A DNA stretch of 64,000 bases from Vicinamibacteria bacterium (GCA_963806705.1 CAWDZE010000012.1:515553-579552); one strand, 5' to 3'; counted from the first letter of the stretch, positions 34,762 to 40,315 are shown. Program-made: numbers and translations. Notes: a model not told the origin generated them from the sequence alone.

Positions 34762-34826
34762 TCAATCTGCGAGATTTCGCAATCTGCAATCTGCAATCTG
34801 CAATCTGCAATCTGCAATCGTCAATT
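34762..34826 (+). repeat. Heptamer tandem array (GCAATCT)n
   Basis: gcaatctgcaatctgcaatctgcaatctgcaatctgcaatcgtcaatt. Confidence 0.9.
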
Positions 34827-35735
34827 CTTTGGTGAACCCGTGAACCCCAGCTTCGGCAGCAGCTCGTCGAGCACGCGGATCATCTCGCTGATCTTGCGCG
34901 GCACGCGGTTGGCCTTCAGATAGACCCATCCAGTCTCGCGCACCAGCCACGGGCTGTTGATGCGATGCGAAACCAGCGTCCCGGCCTTCACCTCGGCCGT
35001 GATCGCGTGATTCGAGATGATGGTCGCGCCGATGCCGCTGCTCGCCATCGCCTTGATGATCTCGACGTTCTCGGTCTCCATGACGATGCGCGGCGAGACC
35101 TGCTCGCGGACGAAGAACTCGTCGATCACCCGGCGCGTGTTGCTTCCTGGTTCGTACAGGATGAACGGCAGCTTGTTCAGATCGGAGGTCTCGATCTTCT
35201 TCTTCTGCGTCAACGGGTGCCCCGGGTAGGTCACCAGCATCAGGTCCTCGCGCATCACCGGCTGGGTGATGAGATCCGGCTCGGTCACCGGCAGTGTCAG
35301 CAGACCCAGATCCACCGTGCCCGCGCGCAGACGCCGGACGAGACGATCGGCCGGCCCGGTCATGACCTTGACGTCCACCTCCGGGTGCAGGCGCTGGAAT
35401 TCCTTCAACAGCGCCGGGAAGACATAAATAGAGACGGTCATCCCGCCGACCAGCCGAATCGTGCCGCTCAGCTTCTGCTGCGTCTCGCTGAGTCGTTCGG
35501 TGGTCTCGCGGATGTCGTCGAAGACGCGGATCGCCAGCTGGAGCAGCGCCTCGCCGGCCGGCGTGATCTTGACCTTCCGCTTGATTCGCCAGAACAGCGG
35601 CTCGTTGAGCTCGGCCTCGAGCAGCAGAATCTGGCGCGAAATCGCCGATTGCGAGACGTGAAGGCGGCGGCCGGCCCCGGTAAACGACCCGGTTTCGGCC
35701 ACTGCCTTGAGAATCTCAAGCTGTCGCAGATCCAT
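34821..35735 (-). CDS. LysR family transcriptional regulator (CysL/CmpR-like)
   Basis: MDLRQL..GSFTGAGRRLHVSQSAISRQI..LE; PBP2 domain with PFILYEPGSNTR. Confidence 0.95.
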   Translation of the reverse strand: MDLRQLEILKAVAETGSFTGAGRRLHVSQSAISRQILLLEAELNEPLFWRIKRKVKITPAGEALLQLAIRVFDDIRETTERLSETQQKLSGTIRLVGGMTVSIYVFPALLKEFQRLHPEVDVKVMTGPADRLVRRLRAGTVDLGLLTLPVTEPDLITQPVMREDLMLVTYPGHPLTQKKKIETSDLNKLPFILYEPGSNTRRVIDEFFVREQVSPRIVMETENVEIIKAMASSGIGATIISNHAITAEVKAGTLVSHRINSPWLVRETGWVYLKANRVPRKISEMIRVLDELLPKLGFTGSPKN

Positions 35736-35739
35736 AAGG

Positions 35740-37192
35740 CTATGACGCGCTGGACGCGCTGGTCATAAGCGTAGCAGGGGTTGGCGAAGCCTGGTGAAAG
35801 AATTCTGCATGAAGCTGGCTCAGGGCCGCCGGCAGGTCGTCCTGGTCCAGCACCAGGGTCACGTTCCGCCGCGCGTCGGCCTGGGAGACCAGCCGCAGGG
35901 GCAGGCCGTGCAGGGCCTTCACGACACGGGAAAACGCCGTCGGGTCGGCCCCGTACCGGTCGCCGACCACCGCCACCAGCGCCAGGTGATTCGACACGCT
36001 CACCTCCGCAAACGTCGACAGCGCCGCGACGATGCTCTCGAGATGCGTCCGGTCGTCGATGGTCACCGACACGCTCACCTCGGAGGTCGACACGACGTCC
36101 ACCGGCGTGCGATACCGCTCGAACACTTCGAAGAGGCGCCGCAGGTAGCCATACGCCATCAGCATGCCGGTCGACGTGATCGTCACCACGGTGATGCCCT
36201 TCTTACAGGCGAGTGCGGTGACGGTGGACGGCTCGGGCGAAGCGCCGTCGGCGATCAGGGTGCCGGGCGCGTGCGGCTTGAAGGTATTCAGGATCCTCAC
36301 GGGGATGTTGCGCGCAGCCGCCGGCTGGATGGTCTTCGGGTGCAGCACCTTCGCGCCGAAGTACGCCAGCTCCGCTGCCTCGGCAAACGACAGGTACGGC
36401 ACGAGGCGTGGCGATTCGACGATGCGGGGATCGGCGGTGAGCATGCCGTCGACGTCGGTCCAGATCTGCACCTCGTCGGCGCCGATCGCCGCGCCGAGCA
36501 GCGACGCGGAGTAATCCGACCCGCCACGCCCCAGCGTCGTCGTGATGCCGAAGCGCGTGGCGCCCACGAAGCCGCCGGTCACGATCACACGGCCGTTGTC
36601 GAGCGCGGGGCGCAGGTTGGCCTCGGTCTGCTCCACGGTCTCGTCAAAGAGCGGCGCTGCCTGGGTGAAGCCTTCGTCGGTGACGATGAGCGCGCGCGGG
36701 TCGGCCCACGTGGCGGGGATGCCCGCCGAGACCAGCGCCGCCGTGACGAGCCGGCTGCTGGCCAGTTCGCCGATGGCGGCTATCGCGTCAAGCGATCGCG
36801 GCGAGGCCTCGTGGAGAACGGCAACGGCGCCGGCGATGGCTCGCAGCTGCGAGAAGAGCGCGTCGACGGCTTCGGGCACTGGCCCGCCATGCTCGCCGGG
36901 AGCGAGCGAGGCGAGCGTTTCCAGGTGTCGCGCGTAGAGCTGGTCGACCAGCGCCAGCGCGTGTTTGGCGTCGCCGCGCCGGGCAAGGGCGGCGACCTCC
37001 AGCAGCTTGTCCGTCACACCACCGAGCGCCGATACCACTACTACGGGTCCCGCGAGGGGGCCCCCGCGGCGCGTTTGCTGCGCCGTGGGGTGAGGTGGCC
37101 TTCGTCCGGCGCTCCGATGCGACGATGGCCACCACTCGTCGGACAGCGTCGGCATCAGCGACCGACGTGCCCCCGAACTTGAGTACTCGCAT
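35740..37192 (-). CDS. lysC: Aspartate kinase (AKIII-like) with N-terminal insertion and frameshift
   Basis: MRVLKFGGTSV; VVVVSALGGVTD, TTLGRGGSDYSA, WTDVDG, GAKVLHP, ACT domain STSEVSVS. Confidence 0.93.
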
Positions 37193-37195
37193 GGC

Positions 37196-38266
37196 CTACC
37201 CCCTCACGGCGGGCGAGGCGAGCACGCCTTCGGCCACCAGCAACTCGGCGTTCAACACCGCCGCTCCCGCCGCTCCGCGCACGGTGTTGTGCCCGAGCGC
37301 GAAGAACTTGTACCCCAGAATCGGACACGTCCGCAGGCGTCCGACAGTGACCGTCATTCCGCCGTCGCGGTCGACGTCGAGACGCGGCTGCGGCCGGTTC
37401 TCCTCGTGGAGGTAGACGACAGGCTGGGTGGGCGCGCTCGGCAGCCTGTGGCGCTGCGGAGCGCCGCTGAAGGAGACCAGCGCGTGCCGCACCTCGTCGA
37501 GTGACGGCTGCTGATCGAGCTGCACCGCCACGGATTCTGTGTGGCCGTTGACCACCGCCACGCGCGTGGTCGATGCGCTGAGGACGACCGGATGCGGCAC
37601 GACCTGGCCGCGTTCGAGCGACCCGAGAATCTTCTTCGGCTCGGTTTCGATCTTGCCCTCCTCGCCCGGGATGAACGGCACGACGTTGCCCACCGCGTCG
37701 AGCGACGCGACGCCAGGGTAGCCGGCGCCTGACAGCGCCTGCAGCGTCGTGACCACCACTGATTTGAGGCCGTACTGGCGCAGCGGCGCCAGGGCCAGCG
37801 AGAGAATCACCGTCGAGCAGTTCGGGTTGGTGAGGATGGCCCCCGACCATCCGCGCGCGGCACGCTGGGTCTCGACCAGCGCGATGTGGTCGCTGTTGAT
37901 CTCCGGGACCAGCAGCGGCACGTCAGGCGCCATCCGGTGGTTGCGCGAGTTGCTGACCACGACGTGGCCGGCACGCGCGAAGGCCTCCTCGATCTCGCCG
38001 GCCACCGAGGCGTCCATCGCAGAGAAGACCAGCTCCGGCGCGCCATTGCCCGGCTTGGCCTCCTGCACGACCAGGTCGGCCAGGTCGGCTGGCGGCGGGA
38101 CAGGCAGCTTCCACGACGCGGCGTCGCGGTACTTCTGCCCGGCCGATCGCTCGCTGGCGCCGACCCAGGTGAGCTTGAACCACGGATGCGCATTGAGCTG
38201 CGCGATGAACTGCTGCCCCACCATTCCCGTGGCACCAAGAACGCCGACCTCGATTCGCTGTGACAT
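37196..38266 (-). CDS. asd: Aspartate-semialdehyde dehydrogenase (archaeal/fungal-like type)
   Basis: GATGMVGQ, NPNCST, QALSGAGYPG, HNTVRGAAG. Confidence 0.95.
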   Translation of the reverse strand: MSQRIEVGVLGATGMVGQQFIAQLNAHPWFKLTWVGASERSAGQKYRDAASWKLPVPPPADLADLVVQEAKPGNGAPELVFSAMDASVAGEIEEAFARAGHVVVSNSRNHRMAPDVPLLVPEINSDHIALVETQRAARGWSGAILTNPNCSTVILSLALAPLRQYGLKSVVVTTLQALSGAGYPGVASLDAVGNVVPFIPGEEGKIETEPKKILGSLERGQVVPHPVVLSASTTRVAVVNGHTESVAVQLDQQPSLDEVRHALVSFSGAPQRHRLPSAPTQPVVYLHEENRPQPRLDVDRDGGMTVTVGRLRTCPILGYKFFALGHNTVRGAAGAAVLNAELLVAEGVLASPAVRG

Positions 38267-38303
38267 GACGGTCCTCGTGTGTCGTTGTCGCCTTAGCCCG
38301 AAC

Positions 38304-38344
38304 AAAAAAAACCCGCCGTGCGGCTCTGGCCGCGTCGGCGGGTT
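38304..38344 (-). terminator. Intrinsic terminator (attenuator) upstream of asd
   Basis: Minus strand AACCCGCCG-ACGCGGCCAGAGCCGCA-CGGCGGGTTTTTTTT. Confidence 0.85.
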
Positions 38345-38370
38345 CTGGTTGCTCGTTAGTAACGCTCTTG

Positions 38371-38466
38371 CTAGTTCGTGTCGAGCCTCAGGGACACCAC
38401 CGCGCGGCCACCATGCTTTCGCATGGTAGTGGTCATAATCGCGGTAATGGTGCTGCGGCCCGTCAT
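38371..38466 (-). CDS. Putative attenuator leader peptide MTGRSTITAIMTTTMRKHGGRAVVSLRLDTN
   Basis: 31-aa ORF with a Thr/Ile/Met/Lys cluster, between a sigma70 promoter and a terminator. Confidence 0.75.
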   Translation of the reverse strand: MTGRSTITAIMTTTMRKHGGRAVVSLRLDTN

Positions 38467-38475
38467 TTCCCGGGC

Positions 38476-38505
38476 AGTATAAGGGCAGAGCCTGCCGCCG
38501 GTCAA
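38476..38505 (-). promoter_or_regulatory. Sigma70-type promoter of leader-asd-lysC
   Basis: TTGACC (38500-38505), 18 nt, TATACT (38476-38481). Confidence 0.75.
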
Positions 38506-38542
38506 CCTGGCGGGGCCGCCACTGCCCCTGCCCCCAACCTGC

Positions 38543-39268
38543 TCAGTTCTGCGTCCGCTTGAACAGCAGCGGCAGGCTCAGCGGCCCCTGGCTCCAGGTG
38601 CCGCTGATCTGCCCGTCCTTCACGTCGCCTTCGAAGGTGGCTCCGATCGCGCCGATGTTGAGCTGAAGGTGCGAGGCGTTTTGCGTGATCGATGAGATCG
38701 CGAGTTCTCCGCCGCCCTGATCGACGCTGATCAGCGTGCCCGTCGCGCCGCTCCCGGCGTTTGCGAGCGTCAGCCGCAGGCGTAAGATGGTGCCCTCCAC
38801 GTTCAGCGCCCCTTCCCAGGATCCTTCGACGTCTTTGGTAACGGGCGTGCTTTTCGCGCGATCCTGCCGTTGGGCCTCGCCTTTCCAGCTGAGCGTGAAC
38901 GGCAGCGTCACGCCGCCCTGACTGAAGTCGCCGGCGATCGACTTGCCGTCCTTCGACACCGTCCCGGCAAACTGCGGGTCTCCGGGCACTCCCTTCATCG
39001 CAAAGCTCACGGCGCTCTCCTTGACGGTGATGTCCGACAACGGCATCGCTTTGACGTTCTGGGCGGGAATGGCAATCGCGCCTTCCCATTTCGAGTCGGC
39101 GTTGGTTGCCAGGTCGACGGAAATCGCCAGCTCCTGGCCCGGCACCTGGATGGTGCCTTCCCAGTGGCCAGCGGGACTCGCCGGGGCCTGTGCCGCAACC
39201 GGGCCACCCGCTAAGCCGATTGTCGCGGCGAGCATCGACATCACTCCGAGGATTTCGCGTGTAGTCAT
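38543..39268 (-). CDS. Secreted hypothetical protein with two tandem beta-rich repeats
   Basis: Signal peptide; repeats GHWEGTI...GDFSQGGVTLPFTL and GSWEGAL...GTWSQGPLSLPLLF. Confidence 0.7.
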   Translation of the reverse strand: MTTREILGVMSMLAATIGLAGGPVAAQAPASPAGHWEGTIQVPGQELAISVDLATNADSKWEGAIAIPAQNVKAMPLSDITVKESAVSFAMKGVPGDPQFAGTVSKDGKSIAGDFSQGGVTLPFTLSWKGEAQRQDRAKSTPVTKDVEGSWEGALNVEGTILRLRLTLANAGSGATGTLISVDQGGGELAISSITQNASHLQLNIGAIGATFEGDVKDGQISGTWSQGPLSLPLLFKRTQN

Positions 39269-39283
39269 GACAACTCCTTGCCT

Positions 39284-40315
39284 TCAGGCCTTGCTCTTCA
39301 GAAACAGCCGAATCGCTTTCACGACCTCACGACGCTTCTCGGTCATGAATCGCGTGTGGGTGGTGTCTGGAAGCTCCACGATCGTGATCGTCGTCACGCC
39401 CGCGCGCAGCTGCTCGATCTGCTCGCGCTGCATCGGCATGACGACGGTCTCGTGAAAGTCACCCGCACGGCGCCGCAGGTCGGCATCGGCGCTCTCGGGC
39501 AGATCGGGACGCGCGGGAATCGCGAACACGGCCAATGCCGGCGCCTTGACCGCGGCGTAGTCGGGCGGCGAGGCCATACCGCTCGTGATGACCTCCTGTG
39601 CCATCGTGAGCGACGCCGGCAGGGCCTTCACGCGGCCGTCGGCGTCGAGGTACATCTCGCGGGTGTCGGCCTCGACGGCCTGGCACCACGGACCGATGTC
39701 GCGCTGGTACCACGCCCGAAAGGTCGCGAAGGACTCGCGGTCGCCGGGGGCCGGAAATGGAAGCCGCGTGTTCCTGACCGGATTGCCCGCAAGGCGCCCG
39801 GCCCACTTCTGCGCGAATGCCGACGAGTGATCGTAGGCGGAATCCAGGTACAACACGCCAGCGACGCGCTCGGGATGCCGCGTGGCGACGAGCGCCGCCT
39901 CGACGCCTCCGGCCGACACTCCCGCAATGAACACCCGCTTCAACCGGAGCATGTCGAGGAACTGGCGAATGTCCTCGACGAGCACGTCGAGCGCGTAGCC
40001 GGTTGCGGGGCTGTCGGACTTGCCGTGGCCGCGCCGGGTCAACGCGATCACGCGAAAGTCCTTCGCGAGTGCCGGCGCGATCTCGTCGAAGCCGTGGGCC
40101 GATCCAAACAGGCCCGCCAGCATCAGCAGAGGCGGCCCGTCACCGCCCCAATCGAGGTAGTGCAGCCTCACGCCGTTCACCGACACGAAATCGCTCTTGT
40201 GTCGCGACTGATCCCGCCAGGGATCAGCCACGTCATCGGCCAATGCGTCAGGCCGCGCCAGGAGCGTGCCGATCAGCAGCCCAAGCGTGACACCGAGAAT
40301 TCGATGGAACCTCAT
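39284..40315 (-). CDS. Secreted alpha/beta hydrolase
   Basis: Signal peptide; LHYLDWGG, TRRGHGKS, GVSAGG nucleophile elbow. Confidence 0.88.
   Translation of the reverse strand: MRFHRILGVTLGLLIGTLLARPDALADDVADPWRDQSRHKSDFVSVNGVRLHYLDWGGDGPPLLMLAGLFGSAHGFDEIAPALAKDFRVIALTRRGHGKSDSPATGYALDVLVEDIRQFLDMLRLKRVFIAGVSAGGVEAALVATRHPERVAGVLYLDSAYDHSSAFAQKWAGRLAGNPVRNTRLPFPAPGDRESFATFRAWYQRDIGPWCQAVEADTREMYLDADGRVKALPASLTMAQEVITSGMASPPDYAAVKAPALAVFAIPARPDLPESADADLRRRAGDFHETVVMPMQREQIEQLRAGVTTITIVELPDTTHTRFMTEKRREVVKAIRLFLKSKA

Follow-up and report, generated by a model that had tools for sequence, protein, structure and literature searches.

A Predicted Leader-Peptide Attenuator Upstream of asd-lysC and Its Sister Leaders in Vicinamibacteria

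Results and Discussion

Leader Anatomy at the asd-lysC Locus

We analyzed a 64,000-nucleotide (nt) stretch of DNA from a Vicinamibacteria bacterium (GCA_963806705.1, CAWDZE010000012.1:515553-579552), called the window below, in which a short leader (38505-38304, minus strand) precedes two genes of the aspartate family. The first gene, asd (37196..38266, minus strand), encodes an archaeal-type aspartate-semialdehyde dehydrogenase (NCBIfam NF006416, 474 bits; TIGR00978, 441 bits; both above cut-offs) and has its own GAGGA about 6 nt ahead of the ATG. The second gene, lysC (35740..37192, minus strand), encodes a monofunctional aspartokinase (TIGR00657, 316 bits). Its true start is MRVLKFGGTSV, with the ATG at 37192, 3 nt past the asd stop, so asd and lysC look translationally coupled. 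The gene upstream of the leader ends at 38543, and no terminator of its own lies between that gene and the leader. The organization of the leader suggests that it is very likely a ribosome-mediated leader-peptide transcription attenuator of asd-lysC, read from a leaderless or nearly leaderless transcript.

A first-pass annotation of the window had listed a promoter, a 31-codon open reading frame (ORF), a hairpin with a GAAA loop, a strand complementary to the 5′ arm of a terminator, and a GC-rich stem with U8 about 40 nt before asd. All of these parts were recovered. The promoter is sigma-70-type with 10 of 12 consensus matches (TTGACC, 38505-38500; 18-nt spacer; TATACT, 38481-38476; minus strand). 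It is the sole promoter-like site within 37000-39500, a 2.5 kb region for which shuffles average 0.1 sites, and the same scan gave no further site between the terminator and asd. The leader ORF runs on the minus strand from ATG 38466 to TAG 38373-38371 and encodes MTGRSTITAIMTTTMRKHGGRAVVSLRLDTN in 31 codons. Its ATG lies 9 nt past the -10 box, which leaves no space for a Shine-Dalgarno site, and the mRNA would therefore probably be leaderless or nearly leaderless.

Several structures follow on the minus strand. In the minimum free energy (MFE) fold, an anti-antiterminator helix, P1, pairs CCATTACCGC-G (38450-38441) with CGCGGTGGTG (38404-38395). The 5′ strand of P1 consists of codons 6-9, Thr-Ile-Thr-Ala (ACC AUU ACC GCG), and the partner strand reads CGCGGUGGUG in the transcript. 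The P1 domain as a whole is a long three-tier hairpin extending over 38462-38382. The same fold contains an apical hairpin over codons 13-20 (CTACCATGC, 38429-38421; GAAA; GCATGGTGG, 38416-38408), a possible pause hairpin. The antiterminator strand GGCCGCGCGGTGG (38409-38397) is able to bind the 5′ arm of the terminator through 13 pairs, leaving one A bulged; its alternative pairing lies inside P1 and the apical hairpin. The terminator has a 12-pair stem by folding (CCCGCCGACGCGGC, 38342-38329; loop CAGA; GCCGCACGGCGGG, 38324-38312; T8, 38311-38304) and ends 37 nt before the asd ATG. A simple terminator scan of 37000-39500 returned no terminator-like site, as the stem of this one has an internal loop, whereas folding does show it.

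A small helix around the stop codon (GCTCG, 38386-38382; CGAGC, 38355-38351; minus strand) appears in the MFE folds within the loop closed by the antiterminator, and by eye it reads GCGCG/CGCGC in the relatives L012 and L014. We dropped it as a supported element; the spacer energies were no better than those of shuffles (median z = -0.77). The stop codon was enclosed in 85/89 MFE folds of related leaders, a count that has no control, and the helix was 56% paired in a MAFFT alignment that is misaligned there.

Folding and Predicted Switch Behavior

The 171-nt leader folded at -80.3 kcal/mol, compared with -53.5 ± 3.7 kcal/mol in 200 shuffles (z = -7.25), and none of the shuffles was as good. 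The P1 domain, the terminator, and the antiterminator duplex reached -42.7, -24.2, and -29.8 kcal/mol, respectively. Against 200 dinucleotide shuffles, the antiterminator duplex of the window gave z = -2.94 and p of about 0.01.

Equilibrium folding of the full-length transcript is uninformative on a kinetic switch and was replaced by folds of a transcript lacking the terminator 3′ arm, in which a stalled ribosome was represented by masking all RNA as far as 14 nt downstream of the A-site codon's first base. With the A site at codons 4-15, all 13 antiterminator pairs were kept. A stall at codon 16 left 11 pairs, one at codon 17 (AAG) left 7 of 13, and stalls from codon 19 onward left none. In these folds, codons 6-15, with their Thr, Ile, and Met codons, fall in the range from which a stall is expected to allow read-through. 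A ribosome held at the Thr/Ile codons would leave the antiterminator strand unpaired and available, which supports the attenuator reading of the first-pass annotation. Most of the 89 related leaders described below behaved in the same way, with the antiterminator free only for stalls early in the ORF.

Anatomy and conservation are observed here, and from them we infer start site, translation, stalling, and read-through as follows. Transcription would start a few bases past TATACT, which by the spacing would put the AUG no more than about 3 nt from the 5′ end, and a ribosome would initiate there in the absence of a Shine-Dalgarno site. If no ribosome is present, or if one runs through fast, codons 6-9 would stay in P1 with CGCGGUGGUG; alternatively, the fast ribosome itself would cover the CGCGGUGGUG strand (codons 18-24). 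Either way, the terminator hairpin with its U8 would form, and transcription would stop 37 nt before asd. When charged Thr-tRNA is scarce, the ribosome would stall with its A site in codons 6-15, and scarcity of Ile-tRNA or Met-tRNA would probably act alike. The stalled ribosome would hold the P1 5′ strand, the free GGCCGCGCGGUGG would pair with the terminator 5′ arm, and the polymerase would then continue into asd and the translationally coupled lysC.

Codon content suggests which amino acids would be sensed. Among the 16 codons 2-17 of the window leader are 6 for Thr, 2 each for Ile and Met, and 1 for Lys. Thr, Ile, and Met together account for 10 of the 16, compared with 9.6% in the background (binomial p = 3e-7). 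Predicted sensing of Thr is well supported, predicted sensing of Ile and Met is plausible, and Lys may add a weak input via the single AAG at codon 17. The first-pass annotation had gone further and proposed that one leader reports on all four end products. Its Thr part held up well and its Ile and Met parts stayed plausible, whereas its Lys part rests on one AAG in a hairpin loop. The Met codons are enriched here, and in relatives Thr, Ile, and Met interchange at these positions.

Conservation across the Order

The asd protein was searched in 41 related genomes, which gave 30 loci. At 25 of these loci, a -10 box was followed 6-10 nt later by a start codon that opens a 26-32-codon ORF, with seven or more consecutive T ahead of asd. 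The five exceptions carried a distant aspartokinase directly upstream of asd instead of a leader. In the window's family, all 18 loci had a run rich in Thr, Ile, and Met followed by TMRKHG. Both the short ORF and its Thr/Ile/Met codons, whose absence from relatives would have spoken against the earlier proposal, are thus kept. An asd-lysC order on one strand was seen at 23 of the 25 loci with a leader.

The predicted pairings were kept as well. Within the family, 86.5% of the cells of P1 (18 distinct sequences), 88.9% of the apical hairpin, 86.3% of the terminator, and 89.2% of the antiterminator were paired, compared with 29-54% for whole structures in controls that slid the partners by 1-3 columns; for the structure that contains P1, these controls gave 30-52%. 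The hairpin core ATGCGAAAGCATGG was invariant in 21 family sequences, and the terminator core CCGCCG/CGGCGG was invariant or nearly so in 24 leaders. RNAalifold on an order-wide MAFFT alignment recovered the P1 core and the terminator core only, as divergence is too great elsewhere. Together with the end-product codons, the conserved short ORF, the intrinsic terminator, and the exclusive pairings that overlap the regulatory codons make up the sequence hallmarks of a leader-peptide attenuator, as had been proposed for asd-lysC.

To follow the element further, we built a covariance model (R1) from 24 of the 25 leaders; L015 was omitted as nearly identical to the window. R1 matched 94 of 151 genomes sampled from the order, including 12/12 of the window's family. 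In a phylum-wide sample, it matched 8 of 151 genomes, of which five belong to the same order (own genome included) and three lie outside it, one in another order of the class and two, both weak, in other classes. One of the weak outside-class matches (L249) is a His-codon leader before a gene that, by eye, is likely hisG.

An exact 17-base search of public contigs returned at least 119 stretches, mostly chance matches. Among the 80 loci listed from this search, 12 had a full-length R1 match, in records titled Vicinamibacteria (8), Vicinamibacterales (1), Acidobacteriota (2), and Bifidobacteriaceae (1). The last record (L193, uncultured Bifidobacteriaceae) holds a full-length leader of 152.3 bits, the same score as the leader of genome G002 of the window's genus, and the record title looks at odds with its content. 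Repeated Allosphingosinicella matches in this search were not the leader.

Sister Leaders before Other Genes

We examined 92 model hits, consisting of the 30 loci of the order-wide search, two more hits in the window's own genome, and 60 further fetched regions; the 24 weakest order-wide matches (E 2e-5 to 6.5e-3) were left out. A leader ORF was parsed in 89 of the 92 (exceptions: L065, L095, L108). The gene after the terminator was identified with Pfam and with blastx against the window's asd, lysC, and dapB. It was asd in 62 cases, dapB in 7, an aspartokinase gene in 6, and hom in 8 (one partial). The rest were a thrB-like GHMP kinase (4), a thrC-like pyridoxal phosphate (PLP) enzyme (2), a Cys/Met PLP enzyme (1), and hisI (2).

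Several features of these leaders point to translation. The first model positions are occupied by TATACT in 63/89 leaders, and the start codon lies 7-10 nt past the -10 box in 64/89. This spacing, 9 nt in the window, argues for a leaderless start. In frame 0, 86/89 leaders have their stop codon in the interval from the antiterminator strand to the terminator, compared with 10/89 and 15/89 for the other frames. Length differences are in frame, with two additional codons in L017 and 14-18 extra codons in one genus. The asd leaders of one genus (L056, L061, L063, L069, L083) are lengthened in frame by 6-18 inserted codons, e.g. RPSTTLGTTLSLSKG, which sit between the Thr/Lys run and the Arg-Lys-Arg unit.

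We then compared codon content among leaders, taking as the sensing stretch codon 2 to four codons before the antiterminator strand, and omitting duplicates and the doubtful ORF parses L070 and L093. Leaders before asd contained 26% Thr, 5% Ile, 6% Met, and 8% Lys, and those before aspartokinase (lysC) contained 27% Thr, 8% Ile, and 7% Lys. Leaders before hom contained 13% Thr and 26% Met, those before thrB contained 33% Thr, 11% Ile, and 11% Met, and those before dapB contained 9% Thr and 12% Lys. Leaders before hisI contained 44% His. The genome background (long ORFs) is 4.7% Thr, 3.4% Ile, 1.5% Met, 2.0% Lys, and 3.0% His. Of 1044 residues in leaders before asd, lysC, and dapB, 88 were Lys, compared with 1 of 197 in those before hom, thrB, thrC, and hisI. 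For two Met-rich leaders that were at first unclassified, hom lies downstream. The comparison strongly backs the view that leader codon content follows the controlled gene, a pattern that a pure RNA-structure model does not predict. Across the leader family, the codons would thus report on pathway end products as proposed earlier, with Lys before dapB, Met before hom, Thr/Ile before thrB, and His before hisI.

The Met-rich leaders before homoserine dehydrogenase (L072, L089, L094, L100, L106, L113; e.g. MLPRTTTMSMRMPMSMGMRVGGVCAIGS) come from one family of the order, and four of them (L072, L094, L106, L113) have a spacer of 210-250 nt between terminator and hom. We know of no published methionine leader peptide, although no search was aimed at one. 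An Arg-X-Arg unit also recurs in many relatives and is frequently present twice; its X is Lys (41/88 Lys codons), Ile, or Met, as in TRKRTTRKR, RIMRIR, and AMRMMAMRM. The CGN codons on either side of X may act in RNA pairing, in slow decoding, or through the nascent peptide.

In the window's own genome, a strict scan found only the asd leader, and a relaxed scan found three (asd, dapB, hisI). The His leader, of the classical kind (G000:C4:91642-91812, minus strand; L033), encodes MAGFVHHAHHHHHLGNVPGRSSCA with seven His codons, followed by a terminator, before hisI (PRA-CH). Its presence suggests that leader-peptide control operates in this lineage. The dapB leader (G000:C4:214299-214453, plus strand; L032, 1501-1655) has TTGACC-N-TATACT, an ATG 8 nt later, the peptide MCIRAIQTRKRSPHGGMAVLCA with a single Lys codon, and a terminator; this leader, likewise predicted to be leaderless, uses the scaffold of the asd leader and lies 2 nt before dapB.

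These sister leaders invite a broader reading, which we put forward tentatively and hold at less than even confidence. In Vicinamibacteria, one leaderless scaffold may have been copied upstream of no fewer than seven genes of the aspartate family (asd, aspartokinase, dapB, hom, thrB, thrC, and a Cys/Met PLP enzyme) and re-aimed by swapping Lys, Met, or Thr/Ile codons, while the trunk copy would integrate Thr, Ile, Met, and Lys. On this view, the copies would have in common the -10 box, its distance from the start codon, an antiterminator strand with GGUGGUGU, and a CCCGCCG terminator.

Evidence against an Attenuator and Alternative Explanations

Several results weigh against an attenuator at asd-lysC. 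When the full-length transcript was folded at equilibrium with a masked ribosome, the terminator was retained at 15 of 16 stall positions, so the antiterminator has to win kinetically. Without a ribosome, the MFE fold of the truncated transcript was the antiterminator, not P1 (-55.2 kcal/mol), so termination without translation depends on the order of folding. Classical attenuators likewise need a co-transcriptional order of folding. Compared with 200 dinucleotide shuffles (median z -2.0), the antiterminator duplex reached p <= 0.05 in 48 of the 89 leaders and p <= 0.01 in 24; in 41 leaders it was no better than shuffles at p <= 0.05. Compensatory change was scarce in the family, with 6 pairs changed on both sides in one count (shuffle mean, 6.4) and 3 in another (shuffle mean, 2.8). 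Of what the first-pass annotation expected from aligned and folded relatives, the mutually exclusive pairings were thus conserved but covariation was no higher than in shuffles, and the structure is carried by conservation instead.

The codons call for similar caution. A change from Thr (ACC) to Ile (AUY) in P1 turns C-G into U-G, which is permitted by pairing alone. Because P1 codons are wobble-neutral in this sense, only the unpaired linker codons 10-13, where the family varies Ile, Thr, Met, Ser, and Ala, speak for amino acid selection. The own-genome dapB leader showed no clear antiterminator by folding (p = 0.22). The seeds of R1 contain CGAAAG, which may favor the finding of Arg-Lys leaders. 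Finally, the relatives are kin, and all counts and p-values given here overstate independence.

Among the alternatives, the one that fares best keeps the attenuator and extends its range. The window leader would be a full four-way sensor in which Lys has real weight beside Thr, Ile, and Met, with the invariant CGA-AAG (codons 16-17) as the Lys sensor. We regard this as rather unlikely. The AAG is invariant in 21 family sequences, and asd, lysC, and dapB leaders are Lys-rich, with at least one Lys codon in the sensing stretch in 50/72 compared with 1/14 of the other leaders. Some families swap Arg-Lys-Arg for Arg-Ile-Arg or Arg-Met-Arg and not for another tetraloop, and a stall at AAG still keeps 7/13 antiterminator pairs if a long footprint is assumed. 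However, the window leader has one Lys codon only, at the very edge of the sensing stretch. This codon belongs to the C-GAAA-G loop of an invariant hairpin, so RNA structure explains its conservation equally well, and the Lys codons in Arg-Lys-Arg context (41/88) may share such a structural cause. The best candidate for a pure Lys sensor, the own-genome dapB leader, is the one in which no clear antiterminator was found.

A metabolite- or protein-binding RNA, with an incidental short ORF and with the CGAAAG, GGUGGUGU, and ACGAGC blocks as binding sites, appears improbable. Several blocks are indeed conserved at the nucleotide level across families, a 30-codon open frame is not rare at 67% GC, and the genes that follow the elements include lysC, asd, and dapB, which form the classical lysine riboswitch regulon. 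Yet the conserved blocks are exactly the P1, antiterminator, and terminator strands. The start is also held 7-10 nt from the -10 box, the stop is placed in frame 0 only, and insertions and deletions are in frame. The encoded amino acid changes with the controlled gene, His runs before hisI included, and an aptamer would not predict this change.

The Rfam database gave no support for a binding RNA. A scan of 37800-39000 at E <= 10 returned seven rows, all at chance level and none reaching threshold, and the lysine riboswitch was not among them. Thr_leader (RF00506) reached 15.1 bits (E = 8.3; gathering score, 55), and Leu_leader reached 15 bits (gathering score, 50).

It is less probable still that there is no switch, and that the hairpin and U8 end the upstream gene or a small independent RNA while asd is read from elsewhere, or that a leader RNA of about 165 nt acts mainly in trans; the upstream gene does lack its own terminator before the leader, and a trans-acting terminated attenuator RNA is on record for the Sinorhizobium trp leader, but the element has its own consensus promoter, accompanies asd and elsewhere other aspartate-family genes regardless of the upstream gene, keeps mutually exclusive pairings, and is separated from asd by an interval without another promoter-like site. 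A role in trans could exist in addition to the switch.

Neighboring Genes and Metatranscriptome Contigs

The lysC reading frame shifts at about 37060-37100, within the segment 37040-37110 and near the GGGGGCCCCC run, which puts the N-terminus and the remainder in different frames. The closest relative (L015) has the same kind of break, whereas six other relatives have one continuous ORF with MRVLKFGGTSV as its start. The frame change is probably a homopolymer error of the assembly, and it could be a real frameshift. A gene for a LysR-family regulator (34821-35735, minus strand) starts 5 nt past the lysC stop and may belong to the asd-lysC operon. The genome also encodes a second monofunctional aspartokinase (G000:C11:281915-283303, minus strand; L242; TIGR00657, 409 bits), and about 55 nt of its upstream DNA held no leader. 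Only one of the two aspartokinases would thus be under the attenuator.

Contigs from four metatranscriptome runs cover small shares of the window. One run (X18) gave a 185-nt contig on 38274-38456 with one differing letter, which reaches from inside the leader ORF through the terminator to just before asd, and another run (X17) gave one contig within asd. The interval 38480-38900 was covered by none, and such contigs cannot show starts, ends, strand, or level. As these libraries may contain DNA, we draw no conclusion from contig cover or its absence.

Relation to Known Systems

In E. coli, thrL is a short leader ORF with Thr/Ile codons, alternative hairpins, and a terminator, and it controls an operon with an aspartokinase gene. 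The window leader resembles it in all of these points, and here too one leader would serve several end products. Unlike thrL, it scores below the gathering score of RF00506, has no space for a Shine-Dalgarno site, carries Met codons and one Lys codon, and occurs in Acidobacteriota. Its target is also different, namely, the common trunk asd-lysC and not thrA-thrB-thrC.

The lysine riboswitch (L box) precedes lysC, asd, and dapB in Firmicutes and Gammaproteobacteria and often acts via a terminator. The same genes would be controlled here, but the window leader has no aptamer match and would sense through ribosomes and charged tRNA, not free lysine. Further work on this riboswitch is given in PMC3384330 and PMC3082890.

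A comparable arrangement is that of Corynebacterium glutamicum ilvBNC, where a leader peptide on a leaderless mRNA is combined with an anti-antiterminator, an antiterminator, and a terminator (PMC11857589). The window leader is predicted to have the same three parts, and its spacing suggests the same leaderless start. The ilvBNC leader differs in its branched-chain amino acid codons, its operon, its occurrence in Actinobacteria, and its unrelated sequence.

A literature search for leader peptides or attenuation in connection with aspartate-semialdehyde dehydrogenase, Acidobacteria, or Vicinamibacter returned no account of the element, although supplements could list predicted attenuators. Lysine biosynthesis in Thermus thermophilus, which uses the alpha-aminoadipate pathway, is reportedly controlled by a Lys-codon leader peptide of its gene cluster. 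This leader belongs to another pathway and another phylum, and it is closer to the dapB-type sister leaders than to the Thr/Ile/Met leader. The passages of PMC4833913 on Acidobacteria give only statistics of leader-gene distance.

Conclusions

Herein, we describe a predicted attenuator whose mechanism is itself classical textbook material; the most novel aspect is the regulon-wide reprogramming of codons. It would extend ribosome-mediated attenuation to Vicinamibacteria (Acidobacteriota), abundant and largely uncultured soil bacteria whose regulation is almost unknown. The covariance model lets annotators find about a hundred unannotated small ORFs and terminators in the order. One scaffold with sensor codons swapped for each branch would be a clean natural case of regulon rewiring by few codon changes. 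If the scaffold was indeed copied and re-aimed in this way, it would provide a natural codon-programmable regulon with rarely reported Met- and Lys-codon leaders, and its trunk copy would mirror, at the ribosome, the concerted feedback inhibition of aspartokinase. In these bacteria, RNA-level control may couple the first two steps of the aspartate family to several end products.

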